DNA of 64,000 nucleotides from an uncultured bacterium (lineage in GTDB: Bacteria > Verrucomicrobiota > Lentisphaeria > Victivallales > UBA1829). The stretch is taken from positions 4,300 to 68,299 of the forward strand of contig CASERY010000030.1 of assembly GCA_949290385.1 (NCBI GenBank), written 5' to 3'. The notes below the pieces were generated by a model that saw nothing but the letters and a program-made list of their open reading frames with translations, was not told the DNA's origin and made no database searches. Positions 5,334 through 56,855 of the stretch are shown one piece after another. Position 1 is the stretch's first letter. Every line of letters starts with the position of its first letter. The translations under genes and the position numbers were made by a program.

Positions 5334-6236
5334 TTATTTAGACTGTGTTGAAAAGGGATGTGGAGCAGGTGTCGTTTCGGAGGCTTGAGAGGGAACGGTT
5401 GCGAAAATTCTGCTTTTTTGGGGATTTTGCCTGAGTGCTGATGAGGGTCGTATAATTCTGTTTCCACAGTGTGGACACGATCCGCTGAGAATGATAAAAG
5501 GTACGCTTTTTCTGACATGGGAATATCTCACAGGAAATCCCGTGCAATGATCGTGTTGATACAGACTTTTCCCGCAGAAAGCGCATCGTGTAACGAGACC
5601 ATAATAAGCAGCCAGGCGTTTTTCCACTGTGCTTCTGCCTAAAACACCAGCCCCGGCCAGGAGCAGGGATATTCCCTGCCAAAGAAAAACTGAATGAAAA
5701 GAAAATCCGTACAGAAGGGAGGCAAAAGGCAGCATACATAAAAAAAGAAACCACCCGGAAAGGATTATTCTGGATTCTCTTTCTGCCTTTCGATATTGTA
5801 GATAACTTTTGGGTGAAATCAGGCTTTTCCAGATTTTTTCCTTTTGGGGACCGTCCGGACAGACAAGGTTTTTCCCATCTGTGGAAAGAACAGAAAATTC
5901 GGCGGGAAAGCAAGAGAAGGATTGGTGTCTGTCATAGCGGCCGTGCTGACTCTGTTTCGAGGTCAGCATTAAAGGACTGTATTCCTATTGGTTTCTATTA
6001 TGATAGCCATTATGACCGGAACCTATAGATTGCGAAAGATCTCCACCGCATTCCGGACATTTGGAAAAGGTCTGCAGAATTTCCAATGAATCTCCAAAAT
6101 AGCCGTGGCAGAGCGGACAGCATCTGCTTTTCCTGATCTTTGAGTGATGATAAACTGCTGCAGTCCACCAGATCATTGCAAGAATTTCCAATCCTGGAAG
6201 TGCTGCAAGCAGGATCCAGCTGTGCCAAGGGCTCAT
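5334..6236 (-). CDS. Hypothetical membrane protein with two TM + zinc-ribbon modules (contains in-frame TAG at 5985-5987)
   Basis: ORFs 5985..6236 and 5334..5969 are in the same frame, separated only by a TAG and 5 sense codons. Each half has hydrophobic segment(s) followed by paired CxxC motifs (CPLC...CPEC; CAFC...CPHC). ATG 6234-6236 overlaps the TGA of the extended recN frame. Final stop TAA. Confidence 0.5.
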
Positions 6237-8059
6237 TTCTGAAAGAGATCCTGTTGTTCCGCGTCTTTTCCGGGGAAAGCGGAAACCGCTGTTTTTTTCT
6301 AATGACGATGGCGGGCGTGTGTTTCCATCGTTGGTTTTTCTGTTTCAGAAATGGAAGAGATTCCGGAATCGGAATGCGGATGTTTCCGGCCGGAAGACAC
6401 CTCTTTATTGTCCTCCAACATAGCCCGTGCATGCTCGCGGGCAGCAGAACCGCCGCCAAGCATGCGGCAGAGTTCATCCAGTCGCTCTTCCGGGGACAGG
6501 GATAGAAGCGTGGAACGGGTATCCTGTTCACTGGAACTTTTCATTACCAGAAAGTGGCACTCTGCACAGCTGGCTACCATGGGGGAATGGGAGATGCAGA
6601 TAATTTGTTTATGACGGGAAAGTTTGCGCAGTTCCTGTCCCACTTTCCCGGCTGTCTCTCCTCCGATGTTTGCATCAATTTCGTCAAAAATCAGAGTCGG
6701 GATGCAATCGGCCTCCGCAAGAACCGTTTTGGCGGCCAGCATGACCCTTGAAATTTCTCCGGAGCTTGCCACATCTTTCAGCGGACGCAGGGGAACTCCC
6801 GGATTGGCGCTGAAGAGAATCTGAATTTTATCACAGCCTCCCGGGCCGTATTCGGCCTGAGAGAAGTCCACTTGGAATTCGGCCTGGCGGAATCCCAGTT
6901 TCCGGGTTTCTTCGCTGAGCAGGGAAATCAGTCGGCCTGCGGCTTCACGACGGGCGAGACTGATCTGGTCGGAGATCGACTGCAGTTGATGAAAAAGGGC
7001 ATTTTCCTGATCACGGAAAGTCCGACGTGTTTGTTCGGCATTTTCAAATGCGTCTATCCGGCCGCGAATCTCATCCGCGTATTCCAGGACATTCTCAAGG
7101 GAAGGGCCATAGCGGCGTTTCAGGGTCTGAAGAATGCGCATGCGTTCTTCCATCGCCTGGAATTCCGATTCATCGAGCTCCACAGAGGCCGCATGGTGAT
7201 TGAGACTCGAGGATAGATCGGAAACCGATTCAGAAATATTTTCGAGCATCTGAAGGAAGCCTTCGGCATGTTCGGGATCGATCCGTTCCAGATCCAGCAG
7301 GGAGCGGCGGATTTCTGCGATGCGGTCAAAAAGAGAATCTTCTCCTTCTGTCAGTGCACTGCAAAGTTTCATGGCAATTTCCAGGATTGTGCGGGAATGA
7401 CTGGCAAGTTCATGTTTTTGTTTCAAAGCATCGTCTTCTCCCACCTGAACATCTGCCCGCTCAATTTCCTCCAGATCTCTTCGAAAACCGGATATTTCCT
7501 ATTCGGACGGCATGGATTCCAGAAAATGGGCATGCTTTTCCCGTATTTCCTTCAGCTCATTCCAAACTTCAGCATTTTTCTGAAGAAGCTCTGATATGCC
7601 GGCAAAGCGGTCCAGAGCGTCAAGCTGCTCGGAAGATTTGAGCAGACTTTGATTTTCATTGGCTGCGTGGATGTCCACCAGAAGTTCCCCGAAAGAACGC
7701 AGAAGCTGGAGACTTACAGGTGTGGCATTGATAAAATTGCGTGTTGCACTGGGCGTGATGACTCTGCGGATGCAAAGAATATTCGGAGCATCTTCCAGAT
7801 CCAGGGCATTTTCCTTCAAAAGGGCAGCGGCTCTGGAATCGGTTCGGGACAGTTCAAACTCCGCAGAAATTTCACAGCGGTCCGCACCAATGCGGATTGC
7901 TGATTTATCTGCACGTTCTCCGAGGAGCAATCCCACTCCGCCCATGATAACGCTTTTTCCGGCACCGGTTTCTCCTGTGATGACATTGAAAGCGGGGCCA
8001 AACTGGATTTCCGCCTCTTCCACGAGGGCAAGATTTTTCAGTTTCATCCATTTAAGCAT
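6233..8059 (-). CDS. recN: DNA repair protein RecN (in-frame TAG at 7499-7501; second TAG at 6299-6301, frame closes at TGA 6233-6235)
   Basis: ORFs 7499..8068 (N-terminal Walker A, ITGETGAGKS) and 6299..7444 (coiled coil plus C-terminal ABC signature/Walker B, SGGEISRVMLA...LIFDEIDANIGG) share one frame. Together they have RecN length. Start placed at ATG 8057-8059 (MLKWMKLKNLALV). Under code 11 this is two fragments. Confidence 0.85.
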
Positions 8060-8151
8060 TTGACGCACCTGGCAGATCTGGGAGTTTTATCCGGCATTCC
8101 CGGACAGACTCCTGTTAATATTGACTGATTTTTTTAAATTGCAAATCTCAT

Positions 8152-22066: not shown

Positions 22067-22434
22067 AGGACTTATTGATCTACAAGTTTTGCAAAGAATA
22101 AACGAATGACAGACTTCTCTGCAGAAAAGGGAGAGGAGTCTGCTATTTTTTTCAGATTTTCTCATGTTGCGCATTTTTTGATTGAGAAGGCGTACCATTA
22201 AAATCGGGATCGGAAAAAGAAGAGCGGATCAGCTGTTCTTCCTGAAACAAGATGGACAGAGCCGGCAGCCGGCAAATCATATGCAGCCAGAGTATGGCTG
22301 TTGGAGGAGACTATCGGCAGACTTTCGAGTTTCTGCCTGGAAAATCGGTCATCCAGGAGGATAAAAACAAGCGCCTGTTCTTTGCAGAAAGACTGTCAAC
22401 ATCCTGATATCGAACAAAAGGAAAATAATTCGCC

Positions 22435-23490
22435 ATGGAACAGAAACAGTCTCAGAAAACCGATCGGTTTCAGCTGATGGCAGCCCCACTTCAAGGCTAT
22501 ACCCTGTCTGATTTCCGGAATGCCCATCGAAAAAGCTGTGGAGGGGCAGATGTCTATTTCACCCCGTTTCTGCGCTTGGAAAAAGGGCTTGTCCGGAAGA
22601 AGGAACTGGCGGATCTGCGCAGAGATTTGGAAGTGGAAAGCCGTGGTATTACTGTCCCCCAGCTGATGGTGAAAAGTCCGGAAGAACTGGCTGTTTTCGT
22701 GGAGACAATCCGGCAGGAAAATGTACTGCGGGAATCCTTTCATTTTCCTCCTTTCCAATGGATTGATTTAAACTTTGGCTGTCCGTTTCCGAAAATGACG
22801 GAACATGGATATGGCGCCGGAATTCTGGCAGAAGAGGATTGTGTGAAAAAACTGCTCTGCTCACTGAAAAAATATCCGGACTTTCATTTCTCTGTGAAAA
22901 TGCGTGCAGGAATGCATTGTCGCGATGACTGGAAGAAATTGGTGGGATTTCTCATTGATGCAGATCTGGAGCTGGTTGTTTTTCATGGAAGAACAGGCGA
23001 TCAGGGATATGACGGCGAGGCAGACTGGACTCTCTGTCTGGATTTTGCTGAATGTTATGGCGGGCGTGTCGTGTATAATGGCGACATCCGGACGCTGGAA
23101 CAGGTTCGTTTTCTAAGGGAAAAGATTCCACATTTGTGCGGAATCATGGCAGGTCGCGGTCTTCTGGCCAATCCTCTGCTGTTTCTGGAAATCCGGGAAA
23201 ACGGAAAAAGATACCTGCAGGAAAGAATTCAGCATTTGGAGCAGTATACTACATATTTCCTGGAGGAAGTTTCCCGCAGAACAGATCAGGTTCTTCCGGA
23301 GTAGAAGCGATTATGGGATTTTTTTCTGCCGGAAGCGGATAAGCGTCTGCGTAAAAAAATCCAGAAATCAACAGATCTGGATGAATATCAGTTCTGGGTG
23401 AAGGAACTTTTTTCTCAGATGACGGAATCCGGAAAAGAGGATAGCAGTCCTTCCGGGAATGAGGATGAGCCGGACCTGGAAGATTGTTAA
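22435..23490 (+). CDS. tRNA-dihydrouridine synthase family protein (in-frame TAG at 23302-23304)
   Basis: ORF 22435..23304 has Dus TIM-barrel motifs (MAAPLQGYT, DLNFGCP, VKMR, HGRT). The same frame continues after the TAG as KRLWDFFLPEADKRLRKKIQKSTDLDEYQFWV... to TAA 23488-23490. This resembles the conserved C-terminal tail of this Dus subfamily as I recall it. Confidence 0.82.
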
Positions 23491-23640: not shown

Positions 23641-25026
23641 TTAAAAAATTTCCCGGCAGTCGGCCAGAATGGAAAGACCTTCTCTTAATTTTGCAAAACT
23701 GCCGGCGGAAGAGAGAGAGACTCGGAGAAAAGGGTGTCTGGGATTTTTCCGGACAGCAAAATGGTCTGAATGCTGAACTAAAATCCCCTTTTCGGCAAGA
23801 GTTTGCTCAATGCGTGCACCGCTTTCCCGGGAGGCGATAGGCAGACTCCGGAAAAAGGCATAAGGATGAGCACTGCTGTCATTCATCTCCGGGAAAATTT
23901 GATTGAACAGCTGATTGGCTTTTAAGGCAAGAGATTTCTTTTTTTCGAGAATGGCGGATGCTTTTCCGCTGAGAATGAGTTCCGTGATAATTTCCGCATC
24001 CAGAGAGGAACTTTTAATGTTCATACTGTAAAGTCCGTGAAGAATGCGTTTGCGGAAGGCTTCCGGAAATGCGGCAAAGGCTATGCGTATGCCGGTGCAG
24101 AGATTTTTCGTGGAACCGCAAATAAAAAATGTCTGGTCCGGAAGCATGGAGAAAAGGGAGCGGACGGGACCTTTCCCGGATCCGAGAGTGCCCATGAGGT
24201 CATCTTCAAGGAGGATGAGACGGTGTTTCTGTATGATTTGTGCAAGGGCTTTTTTCCTGTTTTCCGACATGCTGAGAGCTGTTGGATTGGAGCAGGAAGG
24301 CATCAGAAAGATGCCGCTGATTTTTTCACGGGAACATTGTTTGTCCAATGCTTCGGGATCCATGCCTTGCGCATCTCCGGGAATGGGGATGATCTGGAGG
24401 TGAAACAGTTTTGCAGCCTCGATAAAATTGGCATAGGTGAATTCGTCTGCTGCGATGCGGTCCCCCAGACGGAAAAGGGAGACCAGTGCTACAGTCAAAG
24501 CGTTTTGCGCTCCTGAAAAAATGGCGGTGTGATTGCAGTCTGTACGGACATCCATCTGTTCCATCCAGCGGACGCCTGCCGCACGTTGATGCAGATGGCC
24601 TTCCGCATCTGAATAGGCACAGAGCTTTTTCAGATATTCTTTGCTCAGAACAGACTACGCAGTTTCAGGAATGAAATCATTGCATTCATCAAATACATGA
24701 ACAATGCCAAGCTGAATTTTTCCGGATGGATTCAGAAAATCATTTCCGTGGCCGGTATATGGCGCCGTAAAGGTGCCTTTCCCTGCAATGCCGTAGATTA
24801 AATGTTTCTCCCGACAGAGATCATACGCTCGTGTGACGGTTGTAAAATGAATGTCCAGAAAGTCGGCCAGCTCCCGCTGGGGTGGAAGACGTGTGCCGGG
24901 AGCCAGATGGCCGTTTTGAATATCTTCTTCCAGCAGGTTTGCTAGAGAGAGGTAGCAGGGTCTGGATAATTTGGAACGATCGGGTCTCCAGCTCATTTTA
25001 TAATTTTCAAAGGAATTGACCGGCAT
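23641..25026 (-). CDS. pdxR: MocR/GabR-type regulator (GntR wHTH + aminotransferase-like domain), PdxR-like; in-frame TAG at 24655-24657
   Basis: ORFs 24655..25026 (wHTH, LPPQRELADFLDIHFTTVTRAYDLC) and 23641..24564 (fold-type I PLP domain) share one frame with no other stop between them. The gene is divergent from pdxST, the arrangement known for PdxR. Stop TAA. Confidence 0.8.
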
Positions 25027-56276: not shown

Positions 56277-56855
56277 TTATTTGGCGCTCTGTTGGGAGGA
56301 AGGCGTGTTATCTAGCGTAATATTATGATCCTCTTGTCTGTTTTCTCCGGGACTGCATTGTGCCCGGAGGATTAGAAAATCTCTCCAGAGAGAAGGATCT
56401 TTTTTCAGAAGTTTAGAAAGTTTTGACGGACTTGTCTGAAGTAGTTCCGCAGATTGATGAAGATCTGCAGAACAGGAAAAAAGAACGTCGAAAAAGTCCG
56501 CAATCCAGCATGGATAACGCGTATTCCCGGCAGAGGGGACAGGCTCCAGATGAAAGAGTCGTTTTTCCAGTGGATACTGATCCAAGGGGATACGGATCTG
56601 CCGTGCGATTTCTCTTCGGAGTTTCTGACAGGCAATTTTTCTGTTGGCAAGCTGGCTTCTGGATTCCATGCAGCGTACAGAAATTCCGCTGGAAAGATGA
56701 AGTGCACGAACGGAGGATGAGGTTTTGTTGATTTTCTGTCCGCCATGGCCGGTCGCTTTCTGAAAGTCCAGATGAATCATTCTGGAAAAATCTTCTTCTG
56801 ATGCAGAGAGGATTCTGCTTCTTTCTTCATAGGTCATATCGGCGACAGTCTTCAT
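56277..56855 (-). CDS. GGQ-domain protein (class-I release-factor domain-3-like, RF-H/ArfB-like) with unrelated C-terminal domain
   Basis: KATGHGGQKINKTSSSVRALHLSSGISVRCMESRSQLANRKIA matches the peptidyl-tRNA hydrolase domain of RF1/RF2/PrfH. No codon-recognition domain is visible. The C-terminal roughly 100 aa has an HTH-like segment (SAELLQTSPSKLSKLLKK). Stop TAA. Confidence 0.7.
   Translation of the reverse strand: MKTVADMTYEERSRILSASEEDFSRMIHLDFQKATGHGGQKINKTSSSVRALHLSSGISVRCMESRSQLANRKIACQKLRREIARQIRIPLDQYPLEKRLFHLEPVPSAGNTRYPCWIADFFDVLFSCSADLHQSAELLQTSPSKLSKLLKKDPSLWRDFLILRAQCSPGENRQEDHNITLDNTPSSQQSAK

Follow-up and report, generated by a model that had tools for sequence, protein, structure and literature searches.

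An in-frame TAG before the conserved tail of a tRNA-dihydrouridine synthase gene, and probable genome-wide translation of UAG, most likely as alanine, in an uncultured gut bacterium

A gene of the tRNA-dihydrouridine synthase (Dus) family occupies positions 22435–23490 (+) of a 64,000-nucleotide stretch of DNA from an uncultured gut bacterium, hereafter the window. Its frame begins with an ATG at 22435 and runs for 289 codons to a TAG at 23302–23304; past this TAG it stays open for 61 further codons, KRLWDFFLPEADKRLRKKIQKSTDLDEYQFWVKELFSQMTESGKEDSSPSGNEDEPDLEDC, until a TAA at 23488–23490. A preliminary description of the locus had claimed that the sequence beyond the TAG is the conserved Dus C-terminus, so that the TAG is not a real stop, a claim that would fail if homologues lacked such a tail or if the tail aligned no better than shuffled sequence. 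The question is whether this TAG ends the gene and, if not, how it is read. Our answer, to which we give a probability of about 0.8, is that the Dus TAG is one case of a genome-wide stop-to-sense reassignment of UAG in this bacterium, with alanine the most likely amino acid.

The Dus reading frame beyond the TAG

The frame opens 12 nt after an AAGGA resembling a Shine–Dalgarno motif (22418–22422, +), which we inferred only by reading it off the sequence. Residues 1–289 (22435–23301, +) comprise the TIM-barrel FMN domain and the beginning of the helical domain, and residues 16–296 match the Dus family profile PF01207 with 100.3 bits, above the cut-off of 20.4. In an alignment of 23 sequences, made up of this gene and 22 homologues of 293–389 amino acids, the residues C116 (in NFGCPFP), K155, R157, H184, R186 and N215-G216-D217 are invariant and all are kept here, leaving the catalytic Cys116 and the other invariant catalytic and FMN-binding residues of the barrel intact. 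The C-terminal helical (tRNA-binding) domain is complete only when the TAG is read through. The protein misses the equivalog cut-offs for DusB (TIGR00737, 96.8 against 293), DusA (49 against 269) and DusC (40 against 395), and its closest database homologues, Victivallales metagenome-assembled genomes (MAGs) among the named ones, share merely 34–46% identity with it. A related-locus search of genome contigs returned only a distant Dus from Hydrogenedentota, and the 77% (1.93 Mb) of the nearest relative's genome that was fetched yielded no orthologue, only a 23%-identical paralogue. This Dus may be patchily distributed or fast-evolving within the bacterium's family.

When the 351-residue read-through product is used as query, the homologues cover 86–95% of it, extending well beyond position 290. 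The first 40 of the 61 codons past the TAG (residues 291–330, 23305–23424, +) align with the block that closes the helical domain throughout the subfamily, with the consensus ..KLKTxWDYxLPxAxxKxRKKIxKSxTLxxYxxAV, which the tail reproduces and which agrees with the motif given in the preliminary description. Four alignment-invariant residues, W294, K307, K311 and Y318, all lie downstream of the TAG. At the junction itself, QVLPE-TAG-KRLWDFFLPEADKRLRKKIQKSTDLDEY stands here against QPLPKLKTVWDYFLPNAEPHLRKKLLKSRTMDDY in one homologue, and the column of the TAG (codon 290, 23302–23304, +) holds leucine in 15, isoleucine in 5 and methionine in 2 of the 22 homologues. Scored with a hidden Markov model (HMM) of the homologues' C-terminal block, the tail reaches 57.0 bits, whereas 2000 shuffled versions of it reach at best 7.9 bits (mean −5.5) and the two other frames of the same region at most −0.9 bits. 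Profile and structure comparisons likewise run straight across the TAG: the alignment to TIGR00737 extends over residues 13–323, that to PDB 1VHN over residues 16–326 and that to the Thermus thermophilus Dus (3B0P/3B0V) over residues 107–333. The two outcomes that would have overturned the earlier claim are both absent, since the homologues carry the tail and the tail far outscores its shuffles, and the claim of a conserved, homologous C-terminus beyond the TAG stands.

The TAG recurs outside this assembly. The database cluster of this protein comprises 9 variants, and the full-length ones were called at 289 amino acids in 8 of 8 cases. Seven gut-metagenome contigs, from seven separate ENA assemblies, all have the TAG followed by the tail without interruption and show no more than 6 differences over the 1056 nt of the gene; because TAG and intact tail recur in this way, the TAG is not an assembly error. 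Gut samples containing this organism underlie the ENA assemblies ERZ17292901-05, ERZ945771 and ERZ28564513. The last 21 residues (331–351, QMTESGKEDSSPSGNEDEPDLEDC, 23425–23487, +) form a lineage-specific acidic extension rich in Ser, Glu and Asp, which has no counterpart in the 22 homologues and is unchanged in the seven other assemblies. The frame then closes at what we take as the true stop codon, the TAA at 23488–23490 (+). On the alignment, the recurrence and the tRNA described below, the best reading is a full-length tRNA-dihydrouridine synthase of 351 residues in which the TAG is translated, giving Ala290, although there is no protein-level evidence for it.

In-frame TAG codons and a tRNA(CUA)

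The window belongs to a MAG of 2.68 Mb in 168 contigs, with 46% GC and an estimated completeness of 78%. Its nearest relative (G011; PNPase 81% identical) uses the standard code, and we aligned the open reading frames of that genome, as far as fetched, to the frames of this genome delimited by TAA and TGA, retaining confident alignments only. This count gives 152 in-frame TAGs in 186,744 aligned codons, distributed over 118 ORFs on 71 contigs, or ~0.8 per 1000 codons within genes. The reverse control, run with the same pipeline, finds no in-frame TAG in 180,722 codons of the relative. As control codons in this genome, the pipeline returns 7 in-frame TAA and 12 in-frame TGA, a background that in-frame TAG exceeds 13 to 20 times. 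Beyond a terminal TAG, the frame of ORFs of at least 200 residues stays open for a median of 76 codons, as against 19 after TAA and 21 after TGA. Genes with in-frame TAGs, named by recognised motifs, include rpoA-, prfB-, dnaJ-, uvrC-, frr- and fba-like ones.

Two further examples lie in the window. A recN-like gene with in-frame TAGs (6233–8068, −) yields a single SMC_N stretch over residues 16–509 if TAG is sense, and its TAG at 7499–7501 falls within the alignment to the orthologue in the nearest relative. Beside the Dus gene, a regulator of the MocR type (23641–25026, −) forms one frame only through a TAG: reading it as sense merges a 123-residue GntR ORF and a 307-residue aminotransferase ORF into the standard MocR architecture of a GntR helix-turn-helix domain followed by an aminotransferase domain.

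Among the background codons in conserved alignments, 6 of the 12 TGA sites lie opposite Trp and 2 opposite Cys; TAA accounts for 7 sites. Pseudogenes, strain or assembly errors, or a slight leakiness of UGA could account for these sites. Coding density, computed with each stop codon in turn as sense, did not discriminate between codes. Apparent in-frame TAGs in one genus (g7) and in other relatives came from an unfiltered search that had matched wrong frames, and were discarded.

A tRNA able to read UAG was missing from the initial gene lists. Scans of the assembled genome with ARAGORN and Infernal found 46–48 tRNAs, none with a CUA anticodon, and low-threshold ARAGORN hits labelled 'Pyl(cta)' were junk structures. 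The tRNA had been missed because a contig break cuts its gene in two. Contig C91 opens with the final 30 nt of an unassigned tRNA, and its neighbour gene there, encoding a 480-residue Na+/alanine symporter, was used to locate the complete gene in other assemblies: four independent gut-metagenome contigs encode the identical symporter protein and carry a complete 76-nt tRNA(CUA), GGGGCCTTAGTTCAGTTGGTAGAACACCGGACTCTAAATTCGGCTGTCGAGGGTTCGAGTCCCTTAGGCTCCACCA, ~240 nt downstream. In this genome, nucleotides 1–42, including the anticodon, are at C156:4126–4167 and nucleotides 47–76 at C91:1–30; contig L135 joins the two pieces with 4 nt between them and holds the full gene at L135:2440–2515 (−). A tRNA-Leu(UAA) gene lies ~720 nt from the tRNA(CUA) gene. 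C91 itself has genes with in-frame TAGs, 41–67% identical to their orthologues in the nearest relative, from which we infer that the tRNA(CUA) belongs to this lineage. The tRNA(CUA) had no exact match among the JGI metagenome contigs scanned.

The tRNA(CUA) is canonical (RF00005, 68.6 bits). Its acceptor stem, GGGGCCU...AGGCUCC-A-CCA, has G3:U70, A73, G2:C71 and G4:C69. These are the identity set of alanyl-tRNA synthetase (AlaRS), which does not read the anticodon. The best matches in relatives are all tRNA-Ala genes, mostly tRNA-Ala(UGC) adjoining tRNA-Ile(GAU), and two relatives (G023 and G031) have a tRNA-Ala(UGC) with exactly the same acceptor stem and T arm. Divergence from the tRNA-Ala genes of the family is seen in the D arm and the anticodon arm, and no CUA copy of the tRNA was found in the relatives. 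Near-cognate decoding of UAG by altered Gln, Tyr, Trp or Lys tRNAs was also considered and is unlikely, the anticodon arms being identical to those of the standard-code relative; this comparison was limited to the tRNAs available in both genomes, namely Gln, Tyr, Trp and Lys-UUU.

Amino acid identity and termination

The residues of the nearest relative opposite the 152 TAGs are A 35, Q 19, K 18, E 12, L 11, S 10, T 7, R 6, G 6 and V 6, with fewer of the others. Alanine is the commonest, at 2.4 times its background (p ~1e-6), and its count is 4 to 5 times that of comparable two-step classes such as Gly and Val. The profile is flat, with a peak of 23% for Ala, whereas ordinary codons show their own residue at 49% or more. 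In our reading TAG is a young codon, most of whose sites are one mutation away from CAG, AAG, GAG, TTG or TCG, and such single-step mutations account for the counts of Q, K, E, L and S.

The same counts leave some room for a genome-wide translation of UAG into a different residue, such as Gln, Lys or Ser, or into a mixture of several, which we consider unlikely. Gln and Lys exceed their background at the TAG sites 4.4 and 2.1 times, a plain likelihood model of the aligned residues ranks Gln first by a slight preference, and CUA anticodons attract glutaminyl-tRNA synthetase (GlnRS) in Escherichia coli; a mixture model of the same residues prefers the off-diagonal profile of Pro, so that neither model singles out the amino acid. 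If TAG encoded Gln, Lys or Glu, however, synonymous changes from CAG, AAG or GAG should have made that residue dominate, at an expected ~60%, and 12% is seen. Alanine, in contrast, is the only enriched residue that a single mutation from its own codons to TAG cannot explain. The only tRNA(CUA) has G3:U70, A73 and the acceptor stem and T arm of tRNA-Ala. The GlnRS set is a weak 1:72 pair, G73 and G3:C70; the tRNA(CUA) has G1:C72 and A73 instead. GlnRS or LysRS could still mischarge the CUA anticodon in part. Given the excess of Ala, the identity elements of the tRNA and the absence of a dominant Gln, Lys or Glu, alanine is the best call: UAG most likely encodes Ala, with charging by AlaRS inferred from the identity elements, the Ala excess in support and no aminoacylation data at hand. 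In the Dus protein, Ala290 would replace the conserved hydrophobic residue (L, I or M) of the homologues.

A codon in use for alanine should no longer stop translation, and the release factors and gene ends bear on this. The gene for release factor 1 (RF1), prfA, was not found in the 78%-complete MAG, where the top match to the RF1 model (268 bits) is RF2. By comparison, 55 of 61 genomes of relatives exceed the prfA cut-off and 2 more have near-cut-off or truncated copies. In the nearest relative prfA sits between two genes; both are present here, neither with prfA beside it. Contig C99 ends with the upstream neighbour, which no prfA start follows; ahead of the downstream neighbour (C43:1547–3352), rpmE and two tRNA-Glu genes stand in place of prfA. 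We take this as a sign of local rearrangement at the ancestral prfA site, where RF1 was lost, and it points to a real loss of RF1, inferred here from a MAG that is 78% complete. The two tRNA genes at the C43:1–3352 site are tRNA-Glu(UUC), and a third, partial tRNA-Glu opens contig C154.

The gene for RF2, prfB (C8:4407–5441, −), has the usual in-frame TGA frameshift site and, in addition, one in-frame TAG, which aligns with a Lys in the nearest relative; the remaining release factor therefore itself depends on the new code. Gene ends agree with the loss of a UAG-specific factor. Among 629 orthologue-anchored ends, 622 are TAA or TGA with no earlier TAG and the remaining 7 are ambiguous: at orthologue-defined gene ends, TAG essentially never serves as terminator here any longer. 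Unexpectedly, the nearest relative, which still has RF1, uses TAG at only 2 of the 629 orthologue-anchored ends, and a cruder ORF count finds TAG ends in 7 of 182 cases on 17 other loci of the family but in 7 of 45 for three further families of the order. We conclude that, by the time the code changed, hardly any genes still ended in TAG, a near-disuse within the family that looks like a precondition of codon capture.

Elsewhere in the window, a 192-residue protein (ORF 56277–56855, −) matches a release-factor profile at 56604–56777, with 48.9 bits and over model positions 224–281, which are the GGQ peptidyl-tRNA hydrolase part only. It looks like a rescue factor of the ArfB or RF-H kind. Similar short matches occur in many relatives, so that this protein is probably not specific to the recoding.

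The incompleteness of the MAG means that RF1 could lie in unassembled sequence. It is accordingly conceivable, if quite improbable, that RF1 is encoded in the missing 22%, that UAG has a dual use and acts mostly as a stop, and that the Dus protein is made in both a truncated and a read-through form; in laboratory E. coli, natural amber suppressors and RF1 do occur together. Yet prfA is missing at both flanks of its ancestral locus, at least 152 in-frame TAGs, some of them in essential single-copy genes, would be strongly harmful with an active RF1, and essentially no orthologue-defined gene end is a TAG. That the Dus gene alone is at fault, a pseudogene made by a nonsense mutation or an assembly error and with a decaying tail, is very hard to sustain. 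A single TTG-to-TAG change would suffice, and the few in-frame TAA and TGA codons show that such a background exists in this genome, but the tail keeps every invariant residue and an open frame, the identical TAG and tail are found in the seven other assemblies, and TAG stands far above the TAA and TGA background with a cognate tRNA present. Pyrrolysine (Pyl), for which UAG would be read as in the archaea that read all TAG as Pyl, is scarcely credible: the codon is the same and ARAGORN labels the tRNA 'Pyl', solely from its cta anticodon, but the tRNA is a canonical cloverleaf of tRNA-Ala ancestry unlike pylT, and neither PylS (TIGR02367, best 20 bits against a cut-off of 178) nor PylB (TIGR03910, best 80 against 348) was found in this genome with profiles whose cut-offs the control genome of Methanosarcina acetivorans exceeds.

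Proposed origin and comparison with known codes

Translation of UAG as alanine would work as follows. A dedicated tRNA with the anticodon CUA, apparently derived from the tRNA-Ala(UGC) of the family, would decode UAG; AlaRS being indifferent to the anticodon, this tRNA is expected to carry alanine. The gene for RF1, the sole factor that recognises UAG, would have been lost, leaving RF2 to terminate at UAA and UGA. Efficient decoding of UAG, the charging of the tRNA with Ala and the true absence of RF1 are all inferred. At the Dus locus, the TAG is probably one substitution away from a Leu TTG, and the outcome would be Ala at a hydrophobic position. As to the order of events, the stop codon would first have become near-unused in the family, a tRNA-Ala gene would then have been duplicated and acquired a CUA anticodon, and RF1 would have been lost last. 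We regard this organism, which the named Dus homologues suggest is a member of Victivallales, as probably the first known bacterium with a genome-wide code in which UAG is alanine, and as a codon capture caught early.

In bacteria, stop reassignment is known for UGA only; UAG is reassigned in phages, organelles, eukaryotes and, to pyrrolysine, archaea. If our reading is true, RF1 is dispensable in nature, in a gut bacterium with a genome of free-living size, and the young start of a code change can be traced. Annotation with the standard code cuts short or divides hundreds of genes of this organism, and a code of this kind would escape code-prediction tools whose training covered tables 4, 11 and 25. 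Such a code also has a bearing on phages and their hosts, since guts commonly harbour TAG-recoded phages, and on the horizontal exchange of genes between the lineage and others.

Bacterial UGA stop-to-sense codes are genome-wide, have a tRNA with the matching anticodon and have lost the codon-specific release factor (PMC13462651, PMC13695967). The reassignment proposed here is of the same kind as table 4, with UGA as Trp in Mycoplasmatales, some endosymbionts and Eggerthellaceae, and table 25, with UGA as Gly in Gracilibacteria/Absconditabacteria. Here, however, UAG is the codon concerned, Ala the amino acid, and RF1 takes the place of RF2 as the factor lost; and, unlike the genomes with bacterial UGA codes, the present one is neither tiny nor AT-rich, with 2.7 Mb or more and 46% GC. 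A search of the full-text literature found no report of a genome-wide UAG reassignment in any bacterium.

An archaeal code in which all TAG is pyrrolysine has been described (Kivenson et al. 2025, cited in PMC13695967). It is likewise a genome-wide prokaryotic UAG stop-to-sense change and hard to detect by coding density; it requires pylTSBCD, whereas in the present genome PylS and PylB were not found and the tRNA is of the alanine type. TAG-recoded gut phages (table 15, TAG as Gln; crAss-like and Lak phages) bring their own suppressor tRNAs, and thus share with this system a tRNA(CUA) and the gut as habitat. These phages, however, oppose a host with the standard code, whereas here the TAGs lie on 71 contigs of a cellular genome and in genes such as rpoA, prfB and dnaJ; the phage code, moreover, gives Gln, whereas the identity of the tRNA(CUA) here is Ala.

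Closest in mechanism are laboratory systems. An amber-suppressor tRNA-Ala(CUA) was reportedly made in the laboratory by Hou and Schimmel in 1988 and by McClain and Foss in 1988. The G3:U70 pair makes AlaRS charge a tRNA with a CUA anticodon, and deletion of RF1 in recoded E. coli frees UAG. On such systems see also PMC4434889 and PMC11903333. The mechanism proposed here is the same as in these two settings, but they are engineered, whereas the present one is apparently natural and reuses TAG at ~0.8 per 1000 codons. Closest in the codon itself are the mitochondria of some chlorophycean green algae, in which Hayashi-Ishimaru et al. are said to have found in 1996 that UAG is Ala (and also Leu). 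The pairing of codon and amino acid is the same, but it resides there in a small organellar genome and not, as here, in a free-living bacterial one. The Dus protein, for its part, shares with Thermotoga maritima TM0096 (PDB 1VHN) and the T. thermophilus Dus (3B0P/3B0V) a TIM-barrel FMN domain followed by a C-terminal helical domain, together with the catalytic Cys and conserved basic residues, and differs from both in the extra 21-residue acidic tail that it bears.
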